Made by a program: the position numbers and the translations under genes
Shown here: positions 3,366 to 50,472 of the stretch, one piece after another
How the letters are laid out: each line of letters begins with the position of its first letter
Numbering within the stretch: position 1 is the stretch's first letter
Source of the DNA: a virus
Lineage: Duplodnaviria > Caudoviricetes
Strand: one strand, 5' to 3'
Virus record (IMG/VR): IMGVR_UViG_2531839014_000003
Location: 101,424 to 165,423 of that record
Length of the DNA stretch: 64,000 bases
The notes under the pieces: model-generated
The model's database searches: none
What the model was told of the DNA's origin: nothing
Seen by the model: the letters and a program-made list of their open reading frames with translations, nothing else

Positions 3366-3437
3366 CTATTAGCCTATCACACCATAAGGAGTGAATGAGA
3401 ATGAAATATATTTTAATCGCGAAAGGAATTTTAATAC

Positions 3438-4418: not shown

Positions 4419-4431
4419 TTATAAATTTTAA

Positions 4432-11361: not shown

Positions 11362-11483
11362 TTTAGCAAGCCCTAATTTGAAGGCAAAAGCATATAAGTA
11401 TACCCCCTATTATAAGAGTATAACACAGATCATATTGGAGAGTAGTCATACTGCTCTCCTATTATATTGAGAAAGGACAAAAT

Positions 11484-11651
11484 ATGGAATATAAATCAAT
11501 ATTTACTCCATATGTAGCAAGAAATCTTATTCATATGGGTAATCCAATATTTGATATTAAACCCGATAAAAAGAATACTGATAAAACAATATTCATATTT
11601 AAAGAAACAGAAAAATTAAGGCAAGACATGGCTAGTGCAACTAAGCACTAG
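11484..11651 (+). CDS. Small phage protein (DUF5659-like)
   Basis: AAAGGA SD; MEYKSIFTPYVARNLIHMGNPIFDIKPDK; followed by terminator. Confidence 0.6.
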   Translation: MEYKSIFTPYVARNLIHMGNPIFDIKPDKKNTDKTIFIFKETEKLRQDMASATKH

Positions 11652-11681
11652 CTTTTTTAGTGCAAAAAGAAGGACGCAATA

Positions 11682-12446
11682 ATGAGTAAAGAAAGAATAT
11701 GTGGAATCTATAAAATTGTAAATGAATTAAATAATAAGATGTATATAGGACAAAGTATTAATATATACGAAAGATGGAGACATCATAAAATCCAATTACG
11801 ACATGATAAACATCATAATTCTCATTTACAGAATGCTTGGAATAAATACGGAGAACAAAACTTCCAATTCGTAATCATAGAAGAATGCTCAGAGAGTGTT
11901 TTAGATGTAAGAGAAATATATTATATAACAAAATATAATACTTTTGTTCATTCTAAAAATGCCAAAGGATATAACCTATCTATTGGTGGCGAAGGTATTG
12001 GTATATTTACTGATGAAATGAGACAAATATTCAGAGAGGCTCAAAGAGCAAATCCTATATATCAAATAGACTTAGATGGGAATATAATTAATGTTTGGCA
12101 TTATGGAGCAAGAGAGGCTTCAAAAAAATTAAACATTTCACAAGCATGTATATGGCATTGCATAAATCATGATAGACGTACATATAAAAATTATATTTGG
12201 ATATACGTAGATGAATATGAATATTTTAAAATATCAGATTATGTCAATCAAAATACACAAGCAAAATCAATCTTACAATATGATATGTATGGAAATTTTA
12301 TTAAGAAATGGGATAGTGCAAATCAAACACATACATATGGATTTGATCCTTCTGCCATTGTAAAAGTATGTAAACAAAAGTATTCAAGTCATCGTGGATA
12401 TATTTGGTGTTATGAAGATGATGTCTATATCAAAACGGAAATATAA
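11682..12446 (+). CDS. GIY-YIG homing endonuclease with NUMOD1-like repeats
   Basis: GIYKI...YIGQS, ERW, GYN; two C-terminal IxQyDlxG...YIW repeats. Confidence 0.9.
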   Translation: MSKERICGIYKIVNELNNKMYIGQSINIYERWRHHKIQLRHDKHHNSHLQNAWNKYGEQNFQFVIIEECSESVLDVREIYYITKYNTFVHSKNAKGYNLSIGGEGIGIFTDEMRQIFREAQRANPIYQIDLDGNIINVWHYGAREASKKLNISQACIWHCINHDRRTYKNYIWIYVDEYEYFKISDYVNQNTQAKSILQYDMYGNFIKKWDSANQTHTYGFDPSAIVKVCKQKYSSHRGYIWCYEDDVYIKTEI

Positions 12447-16559: not shown

Positions 16560-18387
16560 ATTAATGTCTGAACGCAAGAAGCGAATATGTGAGTTAGATG
16601 CTGAAAGTATAGCATTTTATCGTCGTAACCCCTGCATTGCCTGTGAAGATTTATTGGGTATTAAGCTCATTGATAGTCAAAAGTATATTCTTCAAGCTAG
16701 TTGGAATAAACCACATGTGCTATGGTGTTGTAGTCGTAACTTTGGGAAATCCTTTCTCGGTGCCATTTTTATGGTCCTCAAGGCAATATTATATGAAAAT
16801 CAGGCTATCTACATAGTATCATCAGTTGGTGATCAGTCAAAGGAAACATTTTCTAAGATTGAAGAAATCGTTCTTCGCATCGGTAAAACAGCCGCATCTA
16901 TCGACTCCCTTAAAGACATAGTTGAAAAAGAAACCAAAAAATCAGGGAACAATAAAACAGGTTTTGGTCATGCTCAGTCAGGTTTCCATGTGGAATTTTA
17001 TAACGGAAGTGAAATCTTTACACTGAATGGTAATCCGGATAATAACCGGAGCCGCAGAGCCACTTTAGTATTTTTCGATGAGGCTGCATTCTCTTCCGAT
17101 GAGCTAATTGCTGTATGTGAAGCCTTTGCAACGCAGAATACAGAGTTTAAAACATCTGTTGAAAAAGGCTTTAACCCAGATACATTAAAAAGAAAATGTC
17201 CAACACAGCTGGTTTATGCATCATCACAAGATGATATGAGCAAAATCTTTTATCACCATTATAAAAACTTTTCTAAAAGAATGCTGGCTGGTGATAGAGA
17301 TTATCTTGTGGTTGATATGATTTGTGATACAGCTATTGAAACATATATGGAAGGAAAGCCATATACTGCTCTCCTAACCCGTGACAAAGTGGATGCTGCT
17401 ATGAAAGCAAATAGAGAGAAGGCATTACGTGAATATTATAATCAACCTACAAGAGATGGTGGCGTAAATCAAATTGTAAAATGGGGAACAATTCGCAGAA
17501 ACGAGTGTTTCTATTTGCCTCAGTTATCTTATAAACCTAATACAAATATATGTCTGGCTTTAGATCCTGCACGTACCTTGGATAATTCTATTTTAGGGGC
17601 TATGAATATAGTAAATGATCCTAATTATGGCTACATGGGAGAAATAGTAAACTGTCTGAACTTATTTGACAATGCCAGCAAAAAGGGGTACAAACTGGAT
17701 TCTAATCGACAGTTAAAGGAAATACGAAATTATCTCTCTCTTTACAACGGACAGCATAATGACTATCAGAATATTGATTGCTTATTGATAGATCAAGGTG
17801 CTGGCGGAGGTGGCGTTTCTACTTATGCTGATGGTTTACTAAATGATTGGGTTGGTGACGATGGTCGGCACCATAGAGGACTTATCGATGCTTCACATGA
17901 AATCTATACTGGATATAAGTCTTTATATCCGAACACTATTGATAAATTGCGTCTCATTAGCCCGCGCAAGTATAGAACTCAAATGGTTGATGAGTTTATA
18001 GAACTAATTGATTTAGGAGTAATCAAATTCCCTTATGAATTCAAGCAGGAGTTTATAACGATTGCCAGAAAACAAAAGGATTCTGACGAAGAAATAATTG
18101 AGAAATATGAGCTATCAGAAAAGGAAATTGTGGCCTTAGCAAATATTGACCTAATGAAAGCTGAAACCACGTCAATATACAAATATGAGAACGCAGAAAA
18201 AACTTCTAAAACATATGCAATAGCAAAGGATAAAGAAAGTTCTATGCATGATGATAGGTTTTATGTGTTGATTATGCTTGCACATAGATTGTATGAATTA
18301 CGCCGTGGACAAACAATACAACCAAAGCAGAAAGAACCATCAGATTTTACCAATGCTCCACGTTGTGTATCATCTATAACATTCTAA
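16546..18387 (+). CDS. Terminase large subunit
   Basis: SRNFGKS Walker A, FFDEA Walker B, LDPA and HDDR nuclease motifs. Confidence 0.92.
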   Translation: MEYHKLMSERKKRICELDAESIAFYRRNPCIACEDLLGIKLIDSQKYILQASWNKPHVLWCCSRNFGKSFLGAIFMVLKAILYENQAIYIVSSVGDQSKETFSKIEEIVLRIGKTAASIDSLKDIVEKETKKSGNNKTGFGHAQSGFHVEFYNGSEIFTLNGNPDNNRSRRATLVFFDEAAFSSDELIAVCEAFATQNTEFKTSVEKGFNPDTLKRKCPTQLVYASSQDDMSKIFYHHYKNFSKRMLAGDRDYLVVDMICDTAIETYMEGKPYTALLTRDKVDAAMKANREKALREYYNQPTRDGGVNQIVKWGTIRRNECFYLPQLSYKPNTNICLALDPARTLDNSILGAMNIVNDPNYGYMGEIVNCLNLFDNASKKGYKLDSNRQLKEIRNYLSLYNGQHNDYQNIDCLLIDQGAGGGGVSTYADGLLNDWVGDDGRHHRGLIDASHEIYTGYKSLYPNTIDKLRLISPRKYRTQMVDEFIELIDLGVIKFPYEFKQEFITIARKQKDSDEEIIEKYELSEKEIVALANIDLMKAETTSIYKYENAEKTSKTYAIAKDKESSMHDDRFYVLIMLAHRLYELRRGQTIQPKQKEPSDFTNAPRCVSSITF

Positions 18388-18404
18388 GAAAGGACGGTGA
18401 TTAA

Positions 18405-20054
18405 TTGCCAAATAAAAAAGAAGTGGTCTTATCTTCTTCTGATACTCAGGGCCAGGAAGAAGATTTTAGTGTGACTTTCGCATCAAAAGAAAATACTGAT
18501 GGTAATGAAACCGTCATTTTAACATCTGAAGATATCGCTAAAGAATGGATGTCAAAAGCACTCCAAAGTTTTGATCCGTCTAATGGTCAATATTCTGTGT
18601 ATCTAAAGGAACAACCTTTTGGAGATGATAGTGTCACTTTGGATGATATAAAATTGCTCTCCAAAAATGCCCAGAGTGATATAACCAAAATATTGAAAAT
18701 AAACGCTTTAGTACGTCAGGAAATAAATGGTGATGATATAATTGGGAAAGTCTATGAAACTATGGTAACAAATCTCAATTCAGATATAAGAATATCATTC
18801 GATAATCTTCCATCAAAACCAACCAAGAAATACAAGGATAAAGCAGAATCTCTTATTAAGCAATTTCATAGGGAAACAAATATAAATACAATACTATCAT
18901 CTTCTATCCCGACAGTTTATGTTGAAGGTAATTGTATTAAATATTTGCGCAGTAAAAATGGACATTATGTCATTGATTCTTTTCCATTAGGAGTCGCTAT
19001 TGTTAGCGATTATAAATACAATGGTATTAACTACGTACTTATTGATATCCGTGAGCTTACAAATAGATTACAGAAAACAACGATTAAAGGCAGAAAAAAC
19101 AGACCGCTTTTCTTTAAAAACATCACAGAAGAAATAAAAGCAAATTATCCAGATGAGGTATATCAAGCTTACATAAACAAAGAGCATTATGCAATATTGG
19201 ACATTCGCCGCACGGGTTTAAATCGGTTTTGTAGTATGAATAGAAAATATGGATTATCTGCGGTCTTCAAAGCACTGAAGCCTAATATAATGCTTGACAC
19301 ATTTGACAAATCCGATGCCATTACTGCTAAAGCAAAGGCTAAAAAAATAATACATCAAGTCATCAGAAAAGAAACCATGGGACAAGATTATTCAAAAAAG
19401 GGATTTGAAGAAATGGCTTATGCCCATGAGAATCTGGCAGCAGCATGGAAAAATCCAACCGTGCTATATACTTCACCTCCTTGTGTGGAAAAAATCGTAT
19501 ATGTGGAACCTAAAGTAGAAACAACAAACATAGCTACAATTAATCAATATCGTTCTCGTGTCACTTCTGCTCTTGGAATATCTTTTCTAAATACTGATGG
19601 AAACCAAACTGTTAGTACGGCAAACATTTCCATTAAACAATTAATGAAAACTATAAATAAAATCACAGAACAGGAAGAAATTATCCTCTCTCGCTGGTAT
19701 TCTTTAATTCTTGAAGAAAATGGTATCCCTCAAGAGTATTGCCCCACTCCACATATCCTTGATACAGAATTGCTTGAATTTGAAATGCGTAAAGACTTAT
19801 CGGAATTACTATTTTCAAAGTTTAATTGCTCTTATACTACAGCTTATGAATTGGTTGGACTCAATGCAAAAGATGAAGCGGATAGATTAGTTACTGAAAA
19901 AGAACTAGGTTACGATGAAATATTTCTTGTTCATCCAACTTCGTATAACAGCTCTGGAAATTCAAAAGACTCTGGTGGCAGGCCGAGCGGGTCAGATAAC
20001 CTACAAAAACAGGATTATGACACTGATTATAACAAAACGAGGGTGAAATCTTGA
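18405..20054 (+). CDS. Portal protein
   Basis: 549 aa after terminase; C-terminal GGRP. Confidence 0.8.
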   Translation: MPNKKEVVLSSSDTQGQEEDFSVTFASKENTDGNETVILTSEDIAKEWMSKALQSFDPSNGQYSVYLKEQPFGDDSVTLDDIKLLSKNAQSDITKILKINALVRQEINGDDIIGKVYETMVTNLNSDIRISFDNLPSKPTKKYKDKAESLIKQFHRETNINTILSSSIPTVYVEGNCIKYLRSKNGHYVIDSFPLGVAIVSDYKYNGINYVLIDIRELTNRLQKTTIKGRKNRPLFFKNITEEIKANYPDEVYQAYINKEHYAILDIRRTGLNRFCSMNRKYGLSAVFKALKPNIMLDTFDKSDAITAKAKAKKIIHQVIRKETMGQDYSKKGFEEMAYAHENLAAAWKNPTVLYTSPPCVEKIVYVEPKVETTNIATINQYRSRVTSALGISFLNTDGNQTVSTANISIKQLMKTINKITEQEEIILSRWYSLILEENGIPQEYCPTPHILDTELLEFEMRKDLSELLFSKFNCSYTTAYELVGLNAKDEADRLVTEKELGYDEIFLVHPTSYNSSGNSKDSGGRPSGSDNLQKQDYDTDYNKTRVKS

Positions 20055-36012: not shown

Positions 36013-38101
36013 ATGAACGATAGTTTCAAAATATTTCTTCAAGCTATTATTGACGATAGTAGTTTAACCAAAGTTCAAAAAGACTTAGCAAAAAAGAGAT
36101 TAGAAATCCAAGCTGATATTGATTTTTCAGATTTTGCAAAGAATAAGGCTGATATCGAAAAACAGTTTCGAGCGCTATCAGGAATCATTAAAGATATACT
36201 TGGAGATGCTGTTTCTGATAAACAAGCTGTTCAATGGGCCAAGCAGTATTATAAAGAAATTGAGTCCGGAGCCAAACAGGCTGTTAAAGAACAGGAAAAG
36301 CTAGTAAATGCTATGGCGAAAGGACGTGAGTCTTCAGAACAAGCACGTCAGGCAGAAGAAAAGCGCCATCAACTTGCCCAGGATAAAGCTGTAAATAAGG
36401 CGCTTGAGGAAGAATATAACCTACGCCAAAGAATTGCAAATAAGTCAAAAGAAATTCAGCTCGGAATCGATACAGAGAAATATTCAACCCAGATTGTCTC
36501 AATCCAGCAACAGTTAAGTAAATTTGGAATTGAAAGTGGAGAATCATTCTTACAAGCAAGTGCCGCATTGAAACAATTAGAGGCTGCTTATAATGATATG
36601 AAATTCTCTAGTGGTGATAAACGATTAGATTATGAAAAAGAATACCAGAAACTTCTTGAGAAAACAAAAAATCTCATAACACAAATTAAAAGCCAAAAGT
36701 CAAATGAGATAATTTCTAACGGAGACAATCGTCGTATATCCCTTATAAACGAATTAAACAATTATCTTCAAAAGAATACTGCCATGACTAAACAGTCTAA
36801 GCAGCAAATCATTGAATGGATTAATACACTTAATTCTGCTGATGATATGACAAGGGGTACTTTTGATAATCTCAGGGCGCAATTTAAAGGTCTGGATGCT
36901 GAACTGCGCGCAATGAATAAATTGGGATTATCCTGGACCGATAAATTCAAACAAGCTATTGAGAAGTTTGGTGGCTGGGCACTGGCCACTGGATCGGTTA
37001 TGGAACTTTGGCATTGGCTTAGACAGATGCCACAAGTGGTACGAGAATTGGATACAGAATTGGTTGATTTAAGAAAAACAACCACTGCAACTTCTAGTGA
37101 ACTGAAACAGTTCTATAGCGAATCTAATACTACTGCTAAACAACTTGGTGTTACAACAAAAGAAATAATTAGTCAAGCAAGTGAATGGTCAAGACTCGGT
37201 TATGCCATTAAAGATGCTCAAACTATGTCTAAAAATTCTGCCATTTTAGAGGCTATATCTCCAGATCTAAGTATTCAAAAGGCAACCGATGGATTAGTCA
37301 GTACACTTAAGGCATTCCGCTTGGAAGCAGATGATTCATTGGATGGTATTATTTCTAAAATAAATATCATTGGTAATACACAGGCAGTTTCTAATGGAGA
37401 TATTGTAGATATTTTAACCAGATCATCTTCTGCTATGGCCGCCGCAAATAATACATTAGAACAGACAATTGCGCTAGGTACGGCAGCGACAGAAATCACA
37501 AGAAATGCGGACGCTGTAGGGACGGCTTTAAAGACTATTTCCATGAGGATTCGAGGTTATGACGAAGAGACGGAAGAATATATAGGAAATATTGAGCAAT
37601 TATCGGGTGAAATAGCAAGCTTGACCAAATCTGCCTCTACACCTGGCGGCATCAGTTTATTTACTGATGATTCCAAAGACACATATAAGTCTACGTATCA
37701 AATTTTAGACGATATTAGCAAAATTTGGAATGAATTGACTGACAAAAATCAGGCTCAACTTCTTGAAGTTTTGGCAGGAAAACGGCAGGGGCAAATTGTA
37801 TCTGCTATGATATCTAACTTTGATACTGCGAAAACTTCGCTGGATTCCATGACAAACTCTGCTGGCAATGCTATGCAGGAAATGGAAGTAATTTATGATT
37901 CACTGGATTATAAATTAAATCGCTTGTCTGAAACTGGTACTGGTATTGCTCAGAATTTATTTGACAGAGATGTCATGAAAAATACTGTTGATGGATTTAC
38001 CACAATCGCTGAAGTTATCGATTTTGCCACTGAAAAGTTAGGTCTATTAGGTACATTATCCGTGGGCGCGAGCGGAATATTTGGCGCAAAGGGATTAGGG
38101 T
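36013..38101 (+). CDS. Tape measure protein, exon 1 (unspliced frame stops at 38109)
   Basis: TP901-type TMP core (EWSRLGY, VGTALKTISMRIRG, LAGKRQ). Confidence 0.9.
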
Positions 38102-38535
38102 TAACGTAAGTTACTCGTCATAGTTTACAAGCCCCCTACTACAAAATAGTGGGTGTTCTACGATTTGGTCGTTCATCGAGTAGACTAATCCTTGGATTTA
38201 AATCCTAAATAAGTCGAATATCGGGGGAAGCCGTAAGCCTATCAATTAGGTACTGATAACGCTGCAATAAAAGCTCCATGTGGGTGCGTTACAGCTAAGT
38301 ACAATTGTACAAAAATGGTGGTCCCGACGCGGTATATGTTTTACGTGTAGAATGTATATATCCATAATATATCGCGCGAGAGGCTGACAAGACATGGCCT
38401 GGTTTGATACCAGACTGTAATATACATGATCCGTAACCGTGGCGAAAGGCTGCGTGAAGCGAACAGGGGAGCGAACAGTAGTTGCTACTGCCCTGCTTAG
38501 TACAAATTATACACATCTATTTCTGGCTTGGAAAC
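38102..38535 (+). ncRNA. Group I ribozyme core (P1-P9), P7 imperfect
   Basis: P4 TCGGG/CCCGA; P5 GCCGT/ATGGT; P6 CGCGGTATAT/ATATATCGCG; R-like CGAGAGGCTG; P8; P9 CGTGGC-GAAAG-GCTGCG. Confidence 0.8.
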
Positions 38536-38550
38536 GGGAATGGAATTTAG

Positions 38551-38802
38551 TTATTCATTGGTTAACCATAAGCCTAACATATATGCTTCTGCCTTGGCTT
38601 TGTTAACCGGAGTTAATTTATTATATATAAAGAGAATGTCGTCCTGTGTTTTTATGTTTTCATCTTCGGCATAAAATTTTGACATGGTGATAAAAATATT
38701 GTAGATATTGTTTGGTGATGCATTCATTTCGCGGGCAAGACGATAGAGACTCCAACCACGTTCATGGCAAAGCTGTTTGATACGTTTCAATTCATAATTC
38801 AT
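38551..38802 (-). CDS. XRE-family HTH protein (possibly internally deleted)
   Basis: RIKQLCHERGWSLYRLAREM. Confidence 0.7.
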   Translation of the reverse strand: MNYELKRIKQLCHERGWSLYRLAREMNASPNNIYNIFITMSKFYAEDENIKTQDDILFIYNKLTPVNKAKAEAYMLGLWLTNE

Positions 38803-38904
38803 TACAAATTCCTTTATATATATTGTATCTGCTCTTCTATTTTGATAAAATTAATCTACACCCCTAACTTGACAAAATCATATAATAATAAATGAGGTGG
38901 TTAT

Positions 38905-39468
38905 ATGAATAAATATTTTAAAGTTGCAATGTTTTACACATCTTTTATACCACTGTGGATTACCATCTTGTTTATTGATGTATTAAGCCTCATAAGAGAT
39001 GGTTCTAATCCATATACAGAAATAATAGAAATAGTACTCATTTTATTAGGCCTTATCTTTTCCATACTAATTATTGCTAAGATGATTACTAACGTATCCC
39101 ATGAACATGGAGTTAGGTATAAAATCATAGACGCACAGCAAGAAACAGGAATAACATCTGAATTTTTACTTTCATATATACTTCCGCTTTTTGCTTTCGA
39201 TTTCACTCAATGGGACGGAGCAATTATGTTCTTGGTATACTATGGCATTTTAATGTTTCTATGTGTAAGAAATAATAATGTTTATGCAAATCTTATTTTT
39301 GAATTTAAGAGCTATAAGTTCTATAACTGTGAACTTCAATGGATTGCGGAGCCAGACGTTCCCACCACGCAGTCAATGATTATCAGTCAAAGCAATTTAT
39401 GCGCCAATAAAGGAAATACTGTAGAGATTATTTGCTTAGATAAACCATTCTATCTCACGAAGTCTTAA
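38905..39468 (+). CDS. KwaA-like multi-TM protein
   Basis: Four TM segments, EFLLSYILP; adjacent to KwaB-like gene. Confidence 0.55.
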   Translation: MNKYFKVAMFYTSFIPLWITILFIDVLSLIRDGSNPYTEIIEIVLILLGLIFSILIIAKMITNVSHEHGVRYKIIDAQQETGITSEFLLSYILPLFAFDFTQWDGAIMFLVYYGILMFLCVRNNNVYANLIFEFKSYKFYNCELQWIAEPDVPTTQSMIISQSNLCANKGNTVEIICLDKPFYLTKS

Positions 39469-40399
39469 GAGGCATGGACATAGGTACTTCACATAAGCTG
39501 TCTTCTGTCAGTTCTCGCTTTGCCTTACCACATATGCCAAGAGTAAAATTCTTGGCATTTTGGGGATTCGATAAATCAAACTTTTTATTCTTTTTATCAT
39601 ATGGTATTCCAAATATCTTTGCAAACTTTTCTCTGCTTGTTGGCTTTTTTAGATAGTTAACAACCTGAGATGAATAAGATATAAATTTTTTTGGTGTCTG
39701 TCCTTTATTTGCATAGGAAACGTATTCATCAAAATCTTCAATCATATCCATCGTTTCCAACTCATTTAAATGTTTTTGGCAGATTTTTTTATGAGAGTAT
39801 TCAAGGTTAAACACCGATTCACAATTCGAGTTTATCATATATATCGCATTACTATAAATAATAGCATCGAAACAACTTCCGAATTGAACCATCGGTTCAG
39901 TTACTTCAGCTAGTGTATTTAATCTTGACACAAAAACTGAACGTTTTGACTTTTTTAGATTAACAATTGGATTACGTTTAGTTAGCAAATATAAGTTACT
40001 ATCCTCTCCATCATCATTTTTGTATATTCCAACAAAAATGTACGCTCCTGCCTTAATCTCATCTATCTTTTTGGAATCATCATGGTCCTGTATATGCCGT
40101 AATAATGCTGCCCACTGAGTGTTTATAAGTTCATCACTCATATCAATTTTGTCAATAACTCCTTTTGAATTAAAACCTGTATATTTGATTACCTTTTCAT
40201 CAAAGGCTTCAATATTTTTTTCAAAAGTAGTTTTTTGACGAGATACAACTGTATTTATAAGATTAACTGGTTCAAAATATAATGGATAACATGTATACTC
40301 ATTCGGATGTGTCTTATGGTTATAATGGATTAGGAACAGAGACCATTTTGTAATTTTGTCTATTTGATTCAAACCCTCTTTTAAAATAGCATATGACAT
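39455..40399 (-). CDS. KwaB/DUF4868-like protein
   Basis: 314 aa; FDAII...ESVFNLE pattern; pairing with TM gene. Confidence 0.6.
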   Translation of the reverse strand: MSYAILKEGLNQIDKITKWSLFLIHYNHKTHPNEYTCYPLYFEPVNLINTVVSRQKTTFEKNIEAFDEKVIKYTGFNSKGVIDKIDMSDELINTQWAALLRHIQDHDDSKKIDEIKAGAYIFVGIYKNDDGEDSNLYLLTKRNPIVNLKKSKRSVFVSRLNTLAEVTEPMVQFGSCFDAIIYSNAIYMINSNCESVFNLEYSHKKICQKHLNELETMDMIEDFDEYVSYANKGQTPKKFISYSSQVVNYLKKPTSREKFAKIFGIPYDKKNKKFDLSNPQNAKNFTLGICGKAKRELTEDSLCEVPMSMPLKTS

Positions 40400-40540: not shown

Positions 40541-40564
40541 AAAGAGACTATTTCTAGTCTCTTT
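40541..40564. terminator. Bidirectional hairpin, cassette boundary 1
   Basis: AAAGAGACTA-tttc-TAGTCTCTTT. Confidence 0.8.
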
Positions 40565-40626
40565 AAAAATCACTCTTGCAGTGATTACAATGCCATTGCT
40601 TACTTGCTTTTCCAACAGCAAATACA
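40563..40626 (-). pseudogene. Zn-ribbon gene 3' remnant 1
   Basis: VFAVGKASKQWHCNHCKSDF*. Confidence 0.7.
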
Positions 40627-40660
40627 CAACGACTAAAATATGTAGCAAAGGAATAAAATT

Positions 40661-40819
40661 ATGGATAAAGAAAAAGAAATTAAAAAAGAAGACTTAATCA
40701 ATCAGTTTGAGTTGTTGAAAAAGTCTTCCGATGAAGTATATAAAAATCGAGAATTTGATTCATTGTCAAAATTGAGTATGGCAATGATTGAGTTATACAA
40801 GACTATTATGGCGTATTAA
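40661..40819 (+). CDS. Small hypothetical protein
   Basis: AAAGGA SD; MDKEKEIKKEDLINQF, 52 aa. Confidence 0.55.
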   Translation: MDKEKEIKKEDLINQFELLKKSSDEVYKNREFDSLSKLSMAMIELYKTIMAY

Positions 40820-40986
40820 CCGCTTATTTGCCAGAGATATAATGGTATTACTCTTAAAAATAGTGTGACTAGTGTTTAGGAGTAAGTGTGTTATCAAAAG
40901 TGTGACTTGTGGATAACATACAAGACCACCAATATTGCGGGGCTTAGTGTGACTAATGCTCCGCTTTCCATATTTTATAATTATTT

Positions 40987-41010
40987 AAAGACACCAATTA
41001 AGGTGTCTTT
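40987..41010. terminator. Bidirectional hairpin, boundary 2
   Basis: AAAGACACC-aattaa-GGTGTCTTT. Confidence 0.85.
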
Positions 41011-41015
41011 TAACG

Positions 41016-41075
41016 TTACCATTTCGCTCCACAGTTTTTACATTTAAATTGACTTCTAGCTGTTTTGATAAACAA
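41016..41075 (-). pseudogene. Zn-ribbon gene 3' remnant 2
   Basis: LFIKTARSQFKCKNCGAKW*; last 9 aa identical to the 45326 gene. Confidence 0.8.
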
Positions 41076-41199
41076 TAGCTTTTGGTGCACTTTTGTTCAC
41101 CTTGCTATATTATTACGCATTTTTTTGTTTAACTTGATGGTGTTCATTTTCCAAGAATTGTGTATAATATAAGTAAGGAATCTTATTTGATTCTGTTTC

Positions 41200-41322
41200 G
41201 AGACATGGTTCAGGAGTGTCTGGCTAAAAATAACCTGAAAATATTGCGAGGGGTTTATTGCTGTCACCTGGCTAATAAAAAAGCAAAAAATTATGTAGGA
41301 AGCAGAAATGCTTCCTATTTTA
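41200..41322 (+). ncRNA. Type III antitoxin RNA (two pseudoknot units) plus terminator
   Basis: AGACA/TGTCT with TTCAGG/CCTGAA; AGG/CCT with TTGCT/AGCAA; shared CTGGCTAA; hairpin TAGGAAGCA/TGCTTCCTA. Confidence 0.72.
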
Positions 41323-41334
41323 CTAGGAGATAAA

Positions 41335-41823
41335 ATGGGAACTGCTATATATTGTTACATAGTTAATCAATTTTATTTAGATTATCCTCACCTTAAGAAT
41401 ATACTGGATGAATTTGATGAATCTAAACATAATGTAAGAACCCATTTGTGCCTAAATCTAAAATATAACAATTGTAACGTATTAGTACCGCTAAGGAAGA
41501 AACTAGGTGAACCTGTAAGAGTATTCGGAAGAATAGGGTTTTCGGTTCCAAGTCAATCCAAGCCAAATGCTGGTTTAGATTATAGATATACAATGATAAT
41601 AAATAATCCAAAATATTTTAGATATGATATTCCACGAATAACGAACAAACAACAATTGATTATAAATGAAAATTATAATATAATTCAGAAACAAGTTATC
41701 GAGTATATTGATTCATATGTTAAAGTAGCAAATAAAGACAGAGTAGATAAAACCGCACGATTTCGAGTTTCTAGTTTAATAAATTTCAATTCTGAACTTA
41801 ACGTAAGGCTAAAGACACCTTAA
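41335..41823 (+). CDS. Type III TA toxin (ToxN/TenpN-like endoribonuclease)
   Basis: LVPLR, GLDY..MII motifs; repeats-terminator-toxin layout. Confidence 0.78.
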   Translation: MGTAIYCYIVNQFYLDYPHLKNILDEFDESKHNVRTHLCLNLKYNNCNVLVPLRKKLGEPVRVFGRIGFSVPSQSKPNAGLDYRYTMIINNPKYFRYDIPRITNKQQLIINENYNIIQKQVIEYIDSYVKVANKDRVDKTARFRVSSLINFNSELNVRLKTP

Positions 41824-41834
41824 CTGGTGTCTTT
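41811..41834. terminator. Bidirectional hairpin, boundary 3
   Basis: AAAGACACC-ttaact-GGTGTCTTT. Confidence 0.85.
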
Positions 41835-41847
41835 TTATGATTAATTT

Positions 41848-41910
41848 AAAATCACTTTTACAATTATTGCAATGCCATTGTTTACCAACTTTGCCCATAG
41901 CAAATACACC
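41848..41910 (-). pseudogene. Zn-ribbon gene 3' remnant 3
   Basis: GVFAMGKVGKQWHCNNCKSDF; homologous to remnant 1. Confidence 0.72.
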
Positions 41911-41930
41911 ATATCGTAGTACCACCTACT

Positions 41931-42659
41931 TTATTGGATTATTTTTACCACCACACCAATAATCTGATACTCATCGTTTGAGTAAGCTCTTCTATCATCT
42001 TCAATGCATTCTTCATTGTCGGATGAAAACCAAATACAATCCTCTCTGGGTTTATACCGTTTACAGAGTATATCGCCTTTAAAATTTGCTATTACAATTT
42101 CATTATCAAGATTGAATTCGTTGAATTTTGGATTAACCAGTACAAGTGCACCGTTTTGAATACCAGGTGACATACTTTCACCATTTATCCTGACTCCATA
42201 TACTGCTTCAGATGGAATATCGTCTGATACAATATCCTCCATTTGGTACTCGCCGTCTCTACCGAGTATACCTGCGCCGGCTGCGGCCTCTTGGTCATAA
42301 ACAGGAAAACGATAAATACTTTTACTATTTATTTGATTATCCGAAGTGTCTACAAAACCAAAAATAAAATCAACAATCCTTCTATTAGACATAGAAAGAT
42401 TATTGTAGGCATCTAAAATACGCTGATCTTCTTTTGATAAGGAATCAGCAATATATTTTAGCTCGTCTTTCATAAAATAGTGTGCATCTACCTTTAGCTT
42501 ATTACATATTTCGATAAAATCATTGTAAGTGGGCCTATTTTCCCTATTTTCGTAGGCAGATATGGTTTTTACACTGACATTTATAATTTGAGCCAATTCC
42601 TTTTGAGTAAGATTGTTCTTTTTTCGATATTCTTTTAGTCGGCTTCCAAAATCCATCAT
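41931..42659 (-). CDS. CI/LexA-like repressor (XRE HTH + S24 peptidase)
   Basis: HTH; AAAG cleavage site; GESM serine; CKR lysine. Confidence 0.9.
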   Translation of the reverse strand: MMDFGSRLKEYRKKNNLTQKELAQIINVSVKTISAYENRENRPTYNDFIEICNKLKVDAHYFMKDELKYIADSLSKEDQRILDAYNNLSMSNRRIVDFIFGFVDTSDNQINSKSIYRFPVYDQEAAAGAGILGRDGEYQMEDIVSDDIPSEAVYGVRINGESMSPGIQNGALVLVNPKFNEFNLDNEIVIANFKGDILCKRYKPREDCIWFSSDNEECIEDDRRAYSNDEYQIIGVVVKIIQ

Positions 42660-42707
42660 AATCTCCTGTCCGTATGGAATACTATTATTATAAGCTAATT
42701 AGAGAAT

Positions 42708-42789
42708 AAAGTCTATAAATAATATCCTTTATGTTGACATTCTATATTTAGTAGATTATAATAGTAAAAGTATATAATTTATAGACTTT
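42708..42789 (+). promoter_or_regulatory. Consensus sigma-A promoter flanked by 13-bp inverted operators
   Basis: TTGACA 42734, N17, TATAAT 42757; AAAGTCTATAAAT 42708 / ATTTATAGACTTT 42777. Confidence 0.8.
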
Positions 42790-42862
42790 ATTTTACATGG
42801 TAGGGGCATATTTAAATTGATTTACTTGGTATAATCTGGTAGAATGAAAGGAGTACGGAGGT

Positions 42863-44395
42863 ATGGGAATGTTAAAATCTATTAGTTTAGAAAATTATAA
42901 ATGTTTTAAAGATGAGACTACAATCGATATTGCCCCACTTACGGTATTGTGTGGGGCTAATAGTTCTGGAAAATCTTCTATATTAAAAAGTTTACTAACA
43001 CTAAAACAAAGTGTACAAAGCAATAATTCTGAAGACTATCTAACATTAAATGGCGAACTTGCTGATATTGGTAACTTTAATGATATAATGTCAAGATGTT
43101 CTAGTAATAATATATCAGATACATTTGAAGGTTTGCAATTAGAAGATATAAAATCTAAAGTAATTTCATTTGAAAACACTTTTAGAATTAACAACTATCG
43201 AAACAAAAATATTGGTAAATATATACCTTATCAAGATGCAGCTTCTTATAAAGAATTAAGAAGATTATATAATAAAGAGCATTCCCCAATTAATTCATTT
43301 GAAATAACACTGAAACTTAATATCTCTTTACCTGATGATGTAGCCGATGATTCTTTCTCAAAATTTATATATTCAAATCATTTAGTAAAATATAAAATCA
43401 ATATCAAACTTTTTGACATAAATAATTGTGAAATAACTAGGCGTTCTGGAGTTATCGAATATGAAAATAATATTTTACATTACGAAAACATACCAACCAA
43501 CAATTCTATTAGTGAAAAAGGACACTTGAAATGTAAATGTAGTTTTTCATCGTTGAAAATAAATAATATATATTCAAATTTTTTTGAAGACTATAAATCT
43601 GTATTATATAATATAATGGCTATATCAAAAATTGCCTCTAATCAATTTCTAGGTATTAATTACATTGCTCCTCTTAGAAATAATCCTGAACGTGATTATT
43701 TTATAAAAGGCAACTCAAATACTGTTGGAATTTATGGTGAATTTACACCTACAATAATTGCAAAAAATGTAAATGAGGATATTTCTACAGAAACTTTTCC
43801 TCCTATTTTTGAAGACTGTTTTTTAAAACATGATATGGAGTCTATAAACTTTTTCCATCTCCTATTGCAGTGGACTGATTATTTCAATTTTGGTTCATTG
43901 ACTCTTAATGGTACAAATGGGCATATTGATTTAAAAATTGGAGAGCAAAATATTGTTGATGTCGGGTTTGGTGTTAGTCAAGTATTACCAATAATAGTAC
44001 AAGGACTTATTATGGATAAAGAGCAGTCTTTATTATTAGAGCAACCAGAGATACATCTACACCCAAAATTACAAATGAGAATAGCAGATTTTTTTATTGC
44101 AATGGCACAGTCAGGGAGAAGTTTAATTATTGAAACACATAGTGACCATATAATAAATCGTATAGTTAGAAGAATACTTGAAGATAATACTAACACGATA
44201 AATGATTTAGTTCATATATATTATTTAGAAAAGGAAAATAAATTTGAGCAAACAAAAATAACTCCCATTAAAATTGATTCCTGTCGTGGTATTATCGATT
44301 GGCCTGACGGGTTCTTTGACCAATTTCCGAATGAACAGGAAAAAATCATACGTGCTGGTATAGAAAAAAGAAGATATCTTCGTGAAAAAATCTAA
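42863..44395 (+). CDS. ABC-type ATPase (AAA_15/21 + DUF3696-like)
   Basis: GANSSGKS, VGFG, LLLEQPEIHLHP, ETHS, WPDGFFDQ. Confidence 0.88.
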   Translation: MGMLKSISLENYKCFKDETTIDIAPLTVLCGANSSGKSSILKSLLTLKQSVQSNNSEDYLTLNGELADIGNFNDIMSRCSSNNISDTFEGLQLEDIKSKVISFENTFRINNYRNKNIGKYIPYQDAASYKELRRLYNKEHSPINSFEITLKLNISLPDDVADDSFSKFIYSNHLVKYKINIKLFDINNCEITRRSGVIEYENNILHYENIPTNNSISEKGHLKCKCSFSSLKINNIYSNFFEDYKSVLYNIMAISKIASNQFLGINYIAPLRNNPERDYFIKGNSNTVGIYGEFTPTIIAKNVNEDISTETFPPIFEDCFLKHDMESINFFHLLLQWTDYFNFGSLTLNGTNGHIDLKIGEQNIVDVGFGVSQVLPIIVQGLIMDKEQSLLLEQPEIHLHPKLQMRIADFFIAMAQSGRSLIIETHSDHIINRIVRRILEDNTNTINDLVHIYYLEKENKFEQTKITPIKIDSCRGIIDWPDGFFDQFPNEQEKIIRAGIEKRRYLREKI

Positions 44396-44410
44396 GGTGG
44401 ATTAATTTCT

Positions 44411-45298
44411 ATGAATTTAATTTTCGAACCTGATAAACTATTTACAACTATTGAAGTATGGAATAATGAAGTAGAACGGGATACATTTTTAAGCTCATTA
44501 TTAGATGTCTTAGATTATGTAAATAACCATGATGATATTTACATTTTATGGAATGATGAAATTGCTTCTTTATTGTGGGAAACAAATATACATCCCTGGA
44601 AATTAGATAAAAGTTTCTATAAATCAATTATGCCTAGTATTTCTCATATATTATATAAAAACACACTAGAAATATCGTTAGAAACTTTTGACCATGTAAT
44701 GGAATGTAATCCAGATTTTACAATAGATATTGCAGATATACACATCAAAGAGAATTTTTATCACATGTTGCACCAGGTTATTCATAATAACGAGGTGCCA
44801 AATATTTTGGTTACAAGTAAAAATGATAAAGAATTTAATTTGATTTGTTTCAATGTAGAAGATTCTATTATACCGTTAGTTTTTACCAATTTGACAAATG
44901 ATTTCGTGATTGATAATGAATTTGACAAGGCGTGGGGTAGCCTTTCATCATCTTGTATTATAGAATTAATTAATAAAGTACATAACGAAATGTACTATAC
45001 AGATAAAGTATATCTGTATGATTTTTGTTTTGATTCAAAATTTATTAAAGATATAAAATCTATTAACTCAACAAAATTAAGAATAAAAATCATAACTCAG
45101 ATAATTAAAAAACTAGTGTTTTCATTTACAATCACTCAAAATGATAAATCGTTAGATGATGAAATGATAGGTGAATTTACAGGTAGATTTAGAATATCTC
45201 AAGGAAAACGAATAGAATATATTTATCAAAATAATCAAATTATATTCACACGTTACTATTCTGAAAGCCAGCATGATGAAGGAATACGGCATACATAA
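44411..45298 (+). CDS. Putative effector with C-terminal RelE-like domain
   Basis: FDSKFIKD...RFRISQGKRIEY...HD; operonic with ATPase. Confidence 0.45.
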   Translation: MNLIFEPDKLFTTIEVWNNEVERDTFLSSLLDVLDYVNNHDDIYILWNDEIASLLWETNIHPWKLDKSFYKSIMPSISHILYKNTLEISLETFDHVMECNPDFTIDIADIHIKENFYHMLHQVIHNNEVPNILVTSKNDKEFNLICFNVEDSIIPLVFTNLTNDFVIDNEFDKAWGSLSSSCIIELINKVHNEMYYTDKVYLYDFCFDSKFIKDIKSINSTKLRIKIITQIIKKLVFSFTITQNDKSLDDEMIGEFTGRFRISQGKRIEYIYQNNQIIFTRYYSESQHDEGIRHT

Positions 45299-45322
45299 AA
45301 GACACCAAATTAAGGTGTCTTT
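45298..45322. terminator. Bidirectional hairpin, boundary 4
   Basis: AAAGACACC-aaattaa-GGTGTCTTT. Confidence 0.85.
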
Positions 45323-45325
45323 TAT

Positions 45326-45760
45326 TTACCACTTAGCTCCGCAATTTTTACATTTCATTGTATTTCTAACATCGCTGCTAAATAATCCAAACATGGCACC
45401 TCCAAACGCTTTCTTAGTCATTGAAATTTTCTCTATGTTTGTTGAACCGCAAGTTGGACACTTTGGTGTATTATCAATCTTCTGCTTTAATGGAAGGTTG
45501 ATAACACTTGGTATTTCTTTTTCCTGTATAATTTTTTCTACTACTGGTTTTACATGAACTATATCGCTTTTACTAATCTGAATTAAATCTCTTACTTTAT
45601 ATAAAACACTGTATGACTCGTCTAATAAAAAAGATAAATCGTAATCAGTACCATTTACTTTACATATGTTGTTATTATTAATTGGATATCCGCAATGTAT
45701 ACATTTATCTGATTTATCAGAAACCTCTTTACCACATTCTGGGCAATGAATTAGTGACAT
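45326..45760 (-). CDS. Double zinc-ribbon protein
   Basis: GGAGGAG SD, ATG 45760; CPECG, CIHCG, CPTCG, CKNCG. Confidence 0.85.
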   Translation of the reverse strand: MSLIHCPECGKEVSDKSDKCIHCGYPINNNNICKVNGTDYDLSFLLDESYSVLYKVRDLIQISKSDIVHVKPVVEKIIQEKEIPSVINLPLKQKIDNTPKCPTCGSTNIEKISMTKKAFGGAMFGLFSSDVRNTMKCKNCGAKW

Positions 45761-45829
45761 ATAATACTCCTCCAATATAATTATATTGTTCCAAGCTCTA
45801 TATTTATATTTTATCAGAATTTACAATCG

Positions 45830-48800
45830 TTGTAAACAATGACGCTGATAAAGGCTGGACTACTATATTTAGCAAATTCAAAAAAGAAATTCCTGAAATA
45901 AGTTCAGAAGTTAAGGAATTTATTGATTTACTGAATTCCGACCCAAATAGTAAATTGTGGAAAACTGATGAATTAATAAATTTTGCAAAAGAATGCAAAG
46001 TAACAGATAATGATTTTATTAAGTTCCTATCAACTGCCGACACATCTGGCGATTTAATGGTACAGTATCAGAAACACTTGCAATCCGCTTCCACCGCTAC
46101 ATCCAAATTCGGTGCAGCCCTAAAATCAGCCGCCGCTAATATTGGTATTATGTTGGCAATAAATGTTGGAATATGGGCCGCTGGTAAAGCTTGGGACTAC
46201 TTTGTTAACCGTGTTGAAAATCTCAGAAAAGCAGCTGAAGAATCTGCAAAAAAGTATTCTGATTTAGAGACAGAAATCAGTTCCATTAATTCAGAATTAG
46301 AATCTACGAGTAAACGTATTGATGAATTAAATAAGAAAGAGCATCTTACATTTGTTGAACAGGATGAACTTCAAAAGCTCAAAGAAACTAATGAGGAATT
46401 AGAACGCCAATTAGGAAACCGAAAAGCTTTAGCTAATGTTGCCAAGCAAGATGCGAACGAAAGGGCAAAGGAATATTTTGACAGTCAAGGTTCCGGAACA
46501 AGATATGCTGGTTGGGATATGTCACAAGTTGAAGTTGGAAATACCACATATGGTCAGGCCATTCCAGACATGTATTTTGGAAATCAGCTTGAAGTAGCCA
46601 AACAGAAATTAGATGACTATGAAAACCTACTTCAGCAAAAGGCAGATGTTGAAAAACGCTTATCAGATTACCAGGTGTCCAATCCAACAAATTATGAAAA
46701 ATCAGACGAATACCAAAATATAGTCTTAGAATCAAACGCAATTAGCAATGCTCTTGATGTACTAAAAAAGAGTCTTACTGATTCCATAACAGACTTCGAT
46801 AAATTTGATGACAGTTTAGATTTGGAGAATGATAAAGCTTATATTGATTCACTAAAAGAAATTTCCGATGGATATCAGAATTTATTTGGTGGAGGAAAAT
46901 CTGCAACCCAATCCTTTGACGACATCTGGAACGCTGATACATTCTCCAAAGCACGAAAAGAACTCGAATCAATGGCTCAGGCCGGAACCCTCTCCCCTGC
47001 AACTTTAAGCAATAACGAAACCTATAACCAGCTGTTAAAAGAAACAGGGAAAACTGCTGAGGAAACCTGCGAAAATATTTATGCCTTAGTTGAAGCCGAA
47101 AAATCAGCAAGTAATGTTGCTAAGTCAAGTTCTTTCACTGATATCTTCTCTTCTCTTCCAACCGATAAGCTTGAGGAATATATTGCCCTTGTTAAAGATG
47201 GAGTAATTGACGAAAAGACGATTGGAAACTATGAAGAGTTATCCAAAGCAATGTCCCAAACTGGAACATCTGCGGAAGAAGCAATCAAGGCAATCAAAGC
47301 TTATTCAGAAGGTTTTAAATCCTCAACTGAACTTACACAACACATCCAGGAATCCTATGACCTTCTTACAAAGATACAAAAGGAAGTTGATAAGACAAAA
47401 CAGGTTAGTCTAGATTCCTTAAACTCTATTGCCAAACAATATCCAGAACTTACAACTGCAACAGCGGAATATGCCCAAGGTCTTATTTCAACAGCAGACT
47501 TAATGGCCTTGTTAGAACAGGCGTATAACAATGATGCAAATGCCTTCAGAACTGCTATGGCTGCAAAACTTGATGGTAATGAAGTATTCTTTAACACCAT
47601 TAAGCAGAATAACGAGGGGTTATTTACTGCTCTGGCTAAAGCGTATGGCGTCGATGTTGGCAACTGGAAATCCATGGCTCAAGCCAAAGCTGAAATAGAC
47701 CAAGCATTAATACAGAAACTTGGAGCTGCATGGGGACAATATTATGGTGTTGTAATTGACCAGGCAACAGGTCTTGCATCTCTGATTAATAAGACTCCAA
47801 CGACTGGCTTAACAGCAGAACAGAGTGTTGACCTAATAGTTGCACGTACAAATGCAGAGTCAATAGTTAGTTCTTTTAACCATGCTAAAGAGGCAATGGA
47901 CAAAGCGGCACAGATTGAAGTTAACTTGCCTAATTTTGGTGGTATTGGTGGCAAATCCGGTTCCGGAGGCTCCAAAGGTTCCAAAGATAAAGAGCCTACT
48001 GAATTTGACTGGATGGAACAGAAAATCACCAATCTTGATTCCCAAGTAGATAAGCTCAAAACAAATATAGAATCTCTTGTCGGCTACAGGAACAAGAACT
48101 CCATGACCCATACTGCTATTGATGTACTGACGGAAAAGATGACAGTCCTTCAACAGATGCATGATGAGTATATGAAAAAGGCAGGTGGACTTGGCTTATC
48201 CCAGGAGTATATTGATAAGATTCAGAATGGCACTATTGAGATAGAAACAATCAGTGACGAAAATCTTGCGAAGGTCATTAAGGAATATCAAGACCTGTAT
48301 GGCAAAGCCAGTGATGCGAATAAACGGATTCTTGAAACTAAAGATGTTATCCATAACCTCAATTTATCCAAATTGGATCATATCATAAACCAATTTGAAC
48401 AGATGACGGATATCCAGTCTAAAATGATTGATACCGAAAAGCAGCTTATAGATTTACGTGAAAAATCCGGAGAAGAAATCTATGCTGATGACTATATCTC
48501 ACTTGCTGGTAAACAGTTAAAGCTAACTCGCCAGAATGCAGATGCTTATAACACTCTCGCTGCTGAAATGGAAAGTATGGATTTACAGGAAGGTACGGAA
48601 GAATGGAAGAAATATAACGACCAGTTACAAGAATACAAGAACAATATGATTTCTGCTGCGGATGCCATAGAGCAATATAAAGATTCAATGACGGATTTAG
48701 TCTATAAGGGTCTTAGAGACTTTACAAATACAATGGATTCCATCAATGGAACCATCAGTACAATGAATGACTTAATCGGAAACACTAATCTTGTTAATGA

Positions 48801-50472
48801 ATTTGGAAGTTTAACAGACCGTGGATTGGCCCAAGTTGCTTTATATGCCCATCAGATGTCGAACGCAAAACAGGAAGCTGCTGAATATGCAGAAGCTATC
48901 AATTCGCTCGACGATGCTTTAGATAGCGGATTAATCACTCAGGATGAATACAACTCAATGCTCCAGGAGTACACTTCTGCCCAGGAAAGCGCCGTAAAAT
49001 CAAGTAAAGAAGCCATGGATGCAATTCTTACTCTTGCCAAAGAAGGTATACAAGCTGAAATCGATGCGAAGAAAAGGCTGATTGACGAGACTAAAGCGGC
49101 TCTTGATGCCGAAAAAGATTTGCATGATTATCAGAAATCAATTACCGAGAAACAGGACAATATTTCAAGGTTGGAACGTCAAATTGCAGCCTTAAGTAAT
49201 TCCACCAATCGTAATGACATAGCCCAGAGATTACAGCTACAAAGTCAATTGGCAGACGCAAAAGAAGAATTATATGAACTACAGTATGACCATGAAATTG
49301 AGCAGCGTAAAAATGCTCTGGATGATGAGTATAATGCGTTTGAAGAATCCAAACAAAAGGAATCTGAAGAACTTGATACAAATCTGGATGCACAGAATGC
49401 AGCTATCAACAAATATCTTGACCAGGTAAAAAACAACTACTCTACTGTCTACGGAGTCCTGACCCAGTATGGAGATGAATATAGTCTAGCGGCTATTGAG
49501 GACCTTACCAAACCATGGGAATCTGGAAGTGAAGCAGCTGATTTATGTGCAAACGCAATTGGCGATGCAGTAGCAAATATCCAGTATGAAATTGATGGTC
49601 TTGACTTTAGTCCGCTTTATGAACTGGTAGATTTACTCAATCAGATCGGAATGGGTGGATACGGTGGTGGTTCTTCTGGTTACGAAGATGTAACTGACCA
49701 AGGAAGATGGCAGAAAGGCAAGGGTGGAAAATGGTGGTATGGAAACTCTAATGATGATTATGTCTCAGGAGATATTTATACCATTAATGGAAAACAGTAT
49801 GGCTTTGATGATAATGGATATATGGTGACAGGATGGCGTGACGACTTTGGAGATTGGCGATACTTTGAACCAGAGAATGGTGAAATGGTTAAATCCCAGT
49901 GGCGCAAGTCCCGCGATAATCAATGGTATTATCTTGATAAAGATGGTATCATGGCTACCGATATGGCTGTTAAGGCTAGGGAAAAGGATGGATATTATTA
50001 TCTTGATGATGATGGCAGGTGGGATGGAGATACATTAACTGCTGAGCAGGTTAGAAAACTTGGATATACAATTGGGTATAAAAATGGTACAAAACGTATT
50101 TCTCATGACCAGCTTGCGTGGACTCAGGAAAACAAACCTGAACTAATTACACGTCCAAGTGACGGAGCTTTATTGACTCCACTGAAATTAGGCGATGGCG
50201 TAATAAATGGGGATTTGACTCAGAACCTTTTAGATATCGCTGGAAATCCGAATAGATTTGTTGAAGATATTGTCGCTCGGTCGATGCCTAATTATAAGAT
50301 ACCAGAATTTGATATAGTGCGGAATCAACCCGTGGCAATTAATTCCCCTCTTGTACAAATTGACGGTACTGGTCTGTCCGCTAGTGAAGTCTCTGCAATC
50401 ATAAAGAATGAAACCCGTGATATTGATAAACGGGTTGCCAAAAGTATTAGATATGAACTGATGGGTAAATAA
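45830..50472 (+). CDS. Tape measure protein, exon 2, with cell-wall-binding repeats near C-terminus
   Basis: Frame open from 45781 with no SD/ATG; coiled coil; WWY/YGFD/WYYLD repeats. Confidence 0.85.

Follow-up and report, generated by a model that had tools for sequence, protein, structure and literature searches.

Temperate phages and their satellites, P2 and P4 among them, possess defence hotspots and morons, in which a fixed position among conserved genes is occupied by variable, lysogen-expressed defence genes with their own promoter and terminator. Phages also harbor group I introns with an open reading frame (ORF) 3' of the catalytic core, for example in T4 sunY and nrdD. Where phages exchange DNA, homing-endonuclease genes are reported to lie at the boundaries of the exchanged segments (Barth et al. 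2023, PMC10448857). In this article, I will discuss a 64,000-nucleotide (nt) stretch of a 165,423-bp IMG/VR provirus record (IMGVR_UViG_2531839014_000003), hereafter the window, in which the gene for the tape-measure protein (TMP) is split by an island of cargo genes punctuated by four units, each consisting of a hairpin and the 3' end of an antisense gene for a zinc-ribbon protein (ZnR). I estimate a probability of roughly 0.7 that one of these four units is a living ZnR gene and the other three are the ends of dead ones, each unit with an intrinsic terminator, and that the units mark the joints of an accretion array.

The 5' part of the TMP gene ("exon 1"; 36013-38109, plus strand) is an ORF of 698 codons with its stop at 38109, while a spacer of ~70 nt and then the 3' part ("exon 2") occupy 45761-50472 on the plus strand, the frame being open from 45781 to 50472. 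No in-frame ATG or ribosome-binding site precedes TTG 45955, and the 3' part has no credible independent start. Since an uninterrupted TMP ORF of 2,729-3,005 amino acids (aa) spans the split point in four relatives (L006, L008, L013 and L026), ~7.7 kb must have been inserted into the gene in the window, and this insertion comprises, in order, ~440 nt of non-coding structured RNA, the cargo genes, and an antisense 144-aa ZnR gene that starts ~70 nt ahead of the point where the TMP frame reopens.

The units were searched for with a 56-position hidden Markov model (HMM) of the ZnR C-terminal module, made from 118 database relatives and three type-A ends (L002, L005 and L022), against the 9,741 peptides obtained by translating the whole record in six frames. 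Four matches have i-E < 0.01, all of them on the minus strand and in the island, within 5 kb, and the next-best match in the record has an E of 0.21. The island therein possesses one intact ZnR gene and three stumps of 18-21 codons, antisense to TMP and each beside a hairpin. Hairpin 1 (40541-40567; AAAAGAGACTA/TTTC/TAGTCTCTTT), terminator-like on both strands, adjoins stump A1 (40566-40628, minus strand), the last 21 codons of a type-A ZnR gene reading CVFAVGKASKQWHCNHCKSDF with the stop at 40563-40565 (HMM match 40566-40622, hmm 39-56, E 1e-3). Hairpin 2 (40987-41010; AAAGACACC AATTAA GGTGTCTTT) is followed by stump B1 (41016-41078, minus strand), the last 20 codons and stop of a type-B gene, LLFIKTARSQFKCKNCGAKW (41019-41075, hmm 38-56, E 3e-5), and hairpin 3 (41811-41834; AAAGACACC TTAACT GGTGTCTTT and then TT, called terminator-like on the plus strand) by stump A2 (41848-41913, minus strand), which preserves the final ~21 codons of another type-A gene, GVFAMGKVGKQWHCNNCKSDF (41848-41913, hmm 36-56, E 6e-6), and lies ~18 nt from the stop of an S24 repressor gene at 41931. 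Hairpin 4 (45298-45322; AAAGACACC AAATTAA GGTGTCTTT) is common to the convergent cargo operon and the intact ZnR gene (45326-45760, minus strand; 144 aa, Pfam Zn_Ribbon_1; HMM match 45329-45487, hmm 4-56, E 1e-28). The initial annotation had described these units from the letters alone: each hairpin was found at the coordinate it gave, the minus-strand peptides read exactly as it had them, and the HMM bears out a ZnR end at all four units, with the corrections that the third stump has lost its stop codon and that the intact gene more likely starts at ATG 45760 (144 aa, identical to database protein P0001) than at 45775. The existence of four hairpin and ZnR units is confirmed, far beyond chance. 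As for the hairpin itself, the stem AAAGACACC/GGTGTCTTT has exactly three copies in the record, only at hairpins 2, 3 and 4; it was rejected as a marker of the system, and is better regarded as a common terminator, because >114 viral contigs carry it and only 10 of them have a ZnR module nearby.

The stumps are evidently homologous remnants. A1 and A2 share 80% DNA identity over 65 nt and B1 shares 72% over 61 nt with the end of the intact gene, so that the types are ordered A, B, A, B along the island with the intact gene as the last B. Between A1 and A2 there are 13 nt differences in 21 codons, five codons differing silently only and five with a change of residue, and B1 departs from the intact gene over the final nine codons by four silent changes and without a replacement; these are given as raw counts because Nei-Gojobori dN/dS on 20 codons is saturated (pS > 0.75). 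The silent excess indicates that the stumps diverged while translated, in different working genes, and thereby rules out a recent duplication of a dead fragment; it points to separate source genes for the stumps. Intact type-A genes do exist elsewhere, in L176 (118 aa), L182 (156 aa), L022 and L002.

A megablast of the 16-kb region against GenBank phages gave no match, and related-locus searches of viral contigs with the ZnR protein and with a 171-aa cargo ORF gave no relatives, which were retrieved instead through the TMP, an ATPase of the cargo and DNA motifs: TMP homologues brought in 35 viral loci, and ZnR homologues and a 23-nt motif of the 5' RNA added more. About 10 loci (L012, L024/25/27, L028, L032, L035, L177, L179, L180, L186 and L205) possess a minimal insertion at the same TMP position, in which a structured RNA (300-450 nt) and a terminator hairpin are accompanied by a single antisense ZnR gene that begins right beside exon 2. 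The basal element is thus a ~1-kb insertion at a fixed TMP site in Lachnospiraceae prophages, an RNA followed by an antisense ZnR gene, and since the minimal forms hold only these two, ZnR is the resident gene of the element and cargo is secondary. The cargo turns over between loci: the window has Kiwa and an Nsn-like system; L044 has SeqA-like, GmrSD, S24 repressor and Bro/ANT genes; L048 has DUF3800 and others; L002 has a GmrSD/NsnA-like gene; and L018, L003 and L005 have YbjQ-like and unannotated genes.

Among 42 distinct ZnR-bearing islands, 27 carry one copy of the gene and ~11 are true multi-copy islands (the window, L002, L003, L005, L018, L044, L053, L103, L182, L195 and L198). Every copy in the multi-copy islands is antisense to TMP, the copies that lack a start codon or the N-terminal part lie distal to exon 2, and the copy adjacent to exon 2 is intact, a polarity rule that holds throughout these sequences. 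Furthermore, HMM score and retained length climb stepwise toward exon 2 in the window (18, 23, 26 and 98 bits), L003 and L002, as is expected if the distal copies are older. A fixed breakpoint ~20 codons from the gene end, as proposed in the initial annotation, is not supported, the stumps in other loci spanning 9 to ~80 codons. In several of these islands, a protein family of ~240 aa recurs directly upstream of, and on the same strand as, truncated ZnR C-modules (L005 14350-15084 and 16422-17144; L182 3008-3745 and 4079-4813; L195 12348-13067; L198, reverse-complemented, 5237-5998; L018 16668-17524), with an HExxH-like motif in L018 and a weak Peptidase_M1 match in L005; this family may represent a cassette with repeated insertions into ZnR genes, or it may form a two-gene unit with the C-module.

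How such an array might grow can be followed in three relatives, L002, L003 and L018, whose TMP and left island part are 99% identical. The identity of L003 and L018 ends inside the right hairpin arm of a unit of hairpin and type-A stump, a unit that all three possess and that is homologous to the first unit of the window (84-87% over 62 nt). Past this switch the stumps of L003 and L018 are ~75% alike and the cargo is unrelated, and identity returns in exon 2. Similarly, L002 14515-14847 matches L018 17459-17792 at 93% identity, and here the 3' 45-55 codons of the intact ZnR gene of L018 are a stump in L002, decaying near the joint. To the right of that stump L002 carries an S24-like repressor, a GmrSD/NsnA-like gene and an unrelated 95-aa ZnR gene, and the first ~200 nt of its exon 2 differ from L018. 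L002 is also without 1.4 kb of older cargo relative to L018, so erosion accompanies accretion. Judged by their sequences, L018 and L002 provide a before/after pair for the postulated capture event.

Now considering how a capture might proceed, the phage would recombine with a related phage or prophage bearing a different island at the same TMP site, the right-hand crossover falling in exon 2 by homology and the left-hand one within the resident ZnR gene or shortly beyond it. The segment brought in would consist of cargo, a terminator, its own ZnR gene, the 3' end of the intron and the start of exon 2; it would join on the exon-2 side, and the resident ZnR gene would lose its 5' part. The conserved C-terminal ZnR codons and the terminators could then serve as short patches of homology that resolve later exchanges, since they are the only sequence common to otherwise unrelated cassettes, and the older, distal cassettes would erode by deletion. 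I favor as the probable route that related phages or prophages sharing a host recombine in the ordinary way, because the island has no recombinase, the stump lengths vary and the whole anchor gene is exchanged. The hairpins probably act as terminators, and the stacking of defence genes may well benefit the lysogen.

Polarised, array-like growth, in which each segment brings new cargo and a new ZnR gene, was the central proposal of the initial annotation, and it gains support from the relatives, from the switch in the trio and from the L018/L002 pair; the comparison of TMP insertions in related phages that it asked for showed that a minimal form exists, that cargo turns over at the TMP site and that the ZnR gene beside exon 2 is always intact, with the truncated copies farther off. 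Several points weigh against it. The evidence for serial capture is all comparative, with no event directly observed, and L002, L003 and L018 share their left part and are not fully independent samples. At the left-hand join of the donor, homologous recombination between stumps is indistinguishable from illegitimate joining. The three window stumps start at hmm 36-39, which random breakpoints do not predict and which may reflect the limit of similarity detection. The idea that the old gene is always truncated did not survive either: some islands keep several intact ZnR genes, and positions 2869-7002 of L182 (Mediterraneibacter hominis NSJ-55, a cultured isolate) hold three intact, diverged ZnR paralogues in tandem and one stump, so truncation is frequent and not obligatory. 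Finally, cargo in the closest lineage is fixed except for insertion sequences (IS), and turnover is slow on that scale. A ZnR protein 100% identical to that of the window is indexed in 267 blocks of a public collection, of which 25 contigs were read and six places shown, and the order of the island genes is identical in all six (including the complete genomes CP050964.1 and BJLB01000001.1), one of which carries IS insertions, so that within this prophage lineage the array is stable and the turnover observed is confined to comparisons between lineages. The IS elements, of the Transposase_mut and rve families, lie in L040 (BJLB01000001.1) at 3199-4443, 10604-11759 and 17392-18636, and strike the island and a neighbouring tail gene, one of them sitting between ZnR and the gene for a 295-aa protein and one in KwaB.

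Could the stumps instead have been retained for a function, as terminators or insulators, as 3' untranslated regions of the cargo or as small peptides, such that the pattern reflects selection and not history? Each hairpin does close one or two convergent transcription units, C-module ORFs of 49-62 aa in L003 and L005 have start codons and overlap the upstream gene in the manner of coupled genes, and the ~240-aa family recurs directly upstream of truncated modules. However, the window stumps possess neither start codons nor ribosome-binding sites, one has lost its stop, and the type-A stump of L003 contains stops. Selection of this kind would account for the retention of stumps and not for their origin, and it is compatible with serial capture; as a replacement for it, I consider it unlikely.

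Unlikely as well is site-specific capture, in which the ZnR 3' end and hairpin would form an attachment site (att- or attC-like) used by a dedicated recombinase or by the ZnR protein, duplicating or replacing the 3' end of the gene in the way of islands at tRNA genes or integron cassettes. Tandem integration classically leaves just such repeated 3' ends, in the same orientation, downstream of an intact gene; the starts of the three window stumps fall within three HMM positions of each other; and in the window as in L002 an S24-repressor cassette starts no more than ~20 nt from a stump. Against these stand the failure to find an integrase or recombinase domain in the island proteins (Pfam, PADLOC), the stump lengths of 9 to ~80 codons elsewhere, the occurrence of the hairpin stem in >100 other viral contigs, mostly without ZnR nearby, and the lack of a catalytic domain in the ZnR searches; and the step from L018 to L002 swaps the whole ZnR gene, including its 5' part, together with the start of exon 2. 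A bolder version, which I regard as quite improbable, would make the ZnR end and terminator a dedicated, integron-like capture platform inside a self-splicing intron of an essential gene, with the ZnR protein or the intron RNA directing breaks or strand exchange at the units; if it were true, phages would be actively collecting defence cassettes there.

The strict A, B, A, B order of the stumps could also suggest duplication in situ of a block running from an A-unit to a B-unit, with the cargo between them later diverged or replaced. The intervening cargo blocks are unrelated, though, A1 and A2 are only 80% and B1 and the intact gene only 72% identical with an excess of silent change that drifting dead copies would not show, and the closest relatives of A1, hairpin included, are the units of other phages (84-87%), all of which makes duplication very unlikely. 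Chance likeness of short Cys-rich frames beside ordinary terminators, for which one could invoke only the shortness of the stumps (18-21 codons) and the AT-rich genome, has a negligible probability and is refuted by the HMM statistics (only four matches with E < 0.01 in 165 kb, on one strand and within 5 kb), by the 72-80% DNA identity over 61-65 nt and by the homologous units in other phages.

The array lies in what appears to be an intron, and the repeat of hairpins and stumps is a finding independent of splicing. Directly after exon 1 there is a conserved structured RNA (38108-38550, plus strand) that is ribozyme-like, its assignment to group I being tentative. The 23-nt core motif of this RNA is present in 33 further loci, giving a family of at least 34 members, and wherever the flanking sequence permitted a call it stands directly after the TMP 5' part. 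Compensatory double changes occur in 29 of 55 predicted pairs of a 24-sequence alignment, a covariation that marks these sequences as a structured RNA without telling which class. Rfam Intron_gpI had no match in the window at E <= 1 (15.5 kb searched) or E <= 10 (571 nt), and none of the seven relatives searched reached its gathering score; L012, which has a different 5' RNA, gave a weak partial match (16.8 bits, E 0.18). The label "3' splice site" in the initial annotation thus presupposes an intron that Rfam fails to recognise in the window. An in-frame exon join is nonetheless predicted between exon 1, ending in ACGT before AAGT at 38107, and exon 2, where CG is followed by TTGTAAAC near 45832; the predicted exon 1 ends in U and the predicted insertion in G, and the context at the 3' junction, a G and then (C)T(T/C)G(C/T)AAAC, is common to the window, L035, L048 and L005. 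A P1/P10 pairing was not established. Splicing of the TMP RNA across the island is likely on these signals.

Three further observations concern the element and its host gene. A segment of the RNA, 'CATGATCC' (window 38377-38432), occurs in ~10 of the 24 family members, including the minimal elements L205, L177 and L180, and looks like a subfamily variant and not a private lesion of the window copy. A 10-kb contig, L180, carries the complete TMP-split element twice at a distance of 5.2 kb, each time with the RNA motif, the ZnR gene and the TMP 3' part; the contig may hold the tail modules of two prophages, or the doubling may be an artefact of assembly. Also, the TMP 5' part of relatives holds extra insertions of 0.5-1.7 kb at other positions, after residues ~395, 454, 508, 513-515 and 597 in window protein numbering (L003/L018 11527-12820; L022 2554-3998; L024 228-1512; L033 10762-12419; L176 3800-4987 and 5367-5906), so that interruptions occur at several points along the TMP gene in this group of phages.

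The ZnR protein has 892 homologous matches, in Lachnospiraceae and their phages. In its AlphaFold model (pLDDT 78), a small domain of a beta-hairpin and two helices lies between an N-terminal zinc ribbon and a split C-terminal one, and searches of Pfam, PHROGs, PADLOC, the ESM Atlas, PDB profiles and Foldseek gave generic zinc-ribbon matches only. The initial annotation had wondered whether ZnR itself helps splicing or capture, an idea that finds no support, since neither sequence nor fold searches gave a nuclease, recombinase or maturase signal.

Of the cargo of the window, block 1 (38551-40399) consists of an HTH gene (38551-38802, minus strand; Pfam), KwaA (38905-39468, plus strand; PADLOC E 2e-15) and KwaB (39455-40399, minus strand; PADLOC E 2e-6, Pfam KwaB E 6e-8), and thus encodes KwaA and KwaB together, as is expected of Kiwa; the two genes (38905-40399) are convergent with a 14-nt overlap, the usual arrangement being a co-oriented operon. 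A small remnant block (40661-40958, plus strand) holds a 52-aa ORF (40661-40819) with no family match in Pfam, PADLOC or PHROGs and, between this ORF and hairpin 2, three direct repeats TAGTGTGACTAGTG at 40861-40958, spaced 37 and 47 nt apart, which look like operator sites surviving from an eroded cassette. Block 3 (41160-41823, plus strand) is the 171-aa ORF (41308-41823) with a structured upstream leader. Block 4 (41931-45298) has an S24/HTH repressor (41931-42659, minus strand; Pfam) facing an NsnB-like ATPase (42863-44395, plus strand; PADLOC NsnB E 8e-74) and its 295-aa partner (44411-45298, plus strand), and a homologous ATPase cassette adjoins the intact type-A ZnR gene of L176. Among the labels given to these modules at the outset, KwaA and KwaB are confirmed and the ATPase proves NsnB-like, and the type III toxin-antitoxin label of block 3 is unverified, the 171-aa ORF having no ToxN/AbiQ match in Pfam or PADLOC and a sole match to PHROG 8049 (unknown function). 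Between the repressor and the ATPase operon there is a perfect 12/12 sigma-70 promoter match (42734-42762), flanked by nested inverted repeats, one of 26 nt (92%) and one of 28 nt (79%), that are probable operators (window 42680-42792). The leader that follows (window 42797-42846) matches L002 15601-15650 over 50 nt at 92%, yet the repressors are only 28% identical.

If read correctly, the island is an ordered record of how a prophage defence island is built, backed by natural before/after pairs, and it marks out a place that serves widely as a cargo hotspot in the prophages of gut Lachnospiraceae. The TMP split site, the conserved RNA motif and the antisense ZnR gene provide easy search anchors in the 42 sampled islands and, since much of the cargo between them is unannotated, would enable the mining of new defence systems. 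It also raises the question of how an essential late gene tolerates 7 kb of terminator-studded cargo in an apparent intron, which becomes approachable in cultured hosts, among them Mediterraneibacter hominis NSJ-55 and the strains from which CP050964.1 and BJLB01000001.1 derive.

How, then, does this locus compare with the described systems? Like the islands that accrete in tandem at the 3' ends of tRNA, tmRNA or protein genes, it shows an intact target and same-orientation 3' fragments with different cargo between them, and the array preserves the order of arrival; the repeated 3' ends are in direct orientation here too. Unlike integrase-mediated accretion, no island-borne integrase was found in the window (Pfam), the fragment lengths vary, and the resident 5' part is not retained, the entire ZnR gene having been exchanged between L018 and L002 and the anchor gene and adjoining exon start being replaced at each step; the newest cargo of the window lies beside the 3' end of the intact gene since a new gene arrived together with that cargo, and not through restoration of the old one. 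Integron arrays likewise stack unrelated cassettes in a polarised manner between short hairpin-forming repeats. However, the repeats of the window are gene remnants and terminators and not attC sites, no recombinase domain was found in any island ORF (Pfam, PADLOC), nor an IntI-type enzyme or attI, and in place of promoterless cassettes in one orientation the cargo occupies either strand and is equipped with a repressor of its own and a 12/12 promoter match. The compact 5' RNA, the long ORF-bearing stretch before the predicted 3' splice site and the predicted U and G ends recall T4 sunY and nrdD, from which the window differs in that its resident ORF is antisense and no known homing endonuclease, the stretch runs to 7.3 kb with five transcription units, and the RNA goes unrecognised by Rfam. 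The likeness to the homing-endonuclease genes of PMC10448857 is that the switch points between related phage genomes are marked by a small gene, selfish or accessory, and the difference is that no nuclease domain is recognisable in ZnR. The literature searched does not describe an element that splits TMP and houses a defence island. The fixed position and variable defence cargo are those of P2/P4 hotspots and morons, with the differences that this hotspot lies inside an insertion splitting an essential late structural gene, has an antisense ZnR anchor and leaves a readable trail of truncated anchors, and the phenomenon as a whole combines known themes, namely defence hotspots, moron accretion and the scars of tandem islands, at an unusual place.

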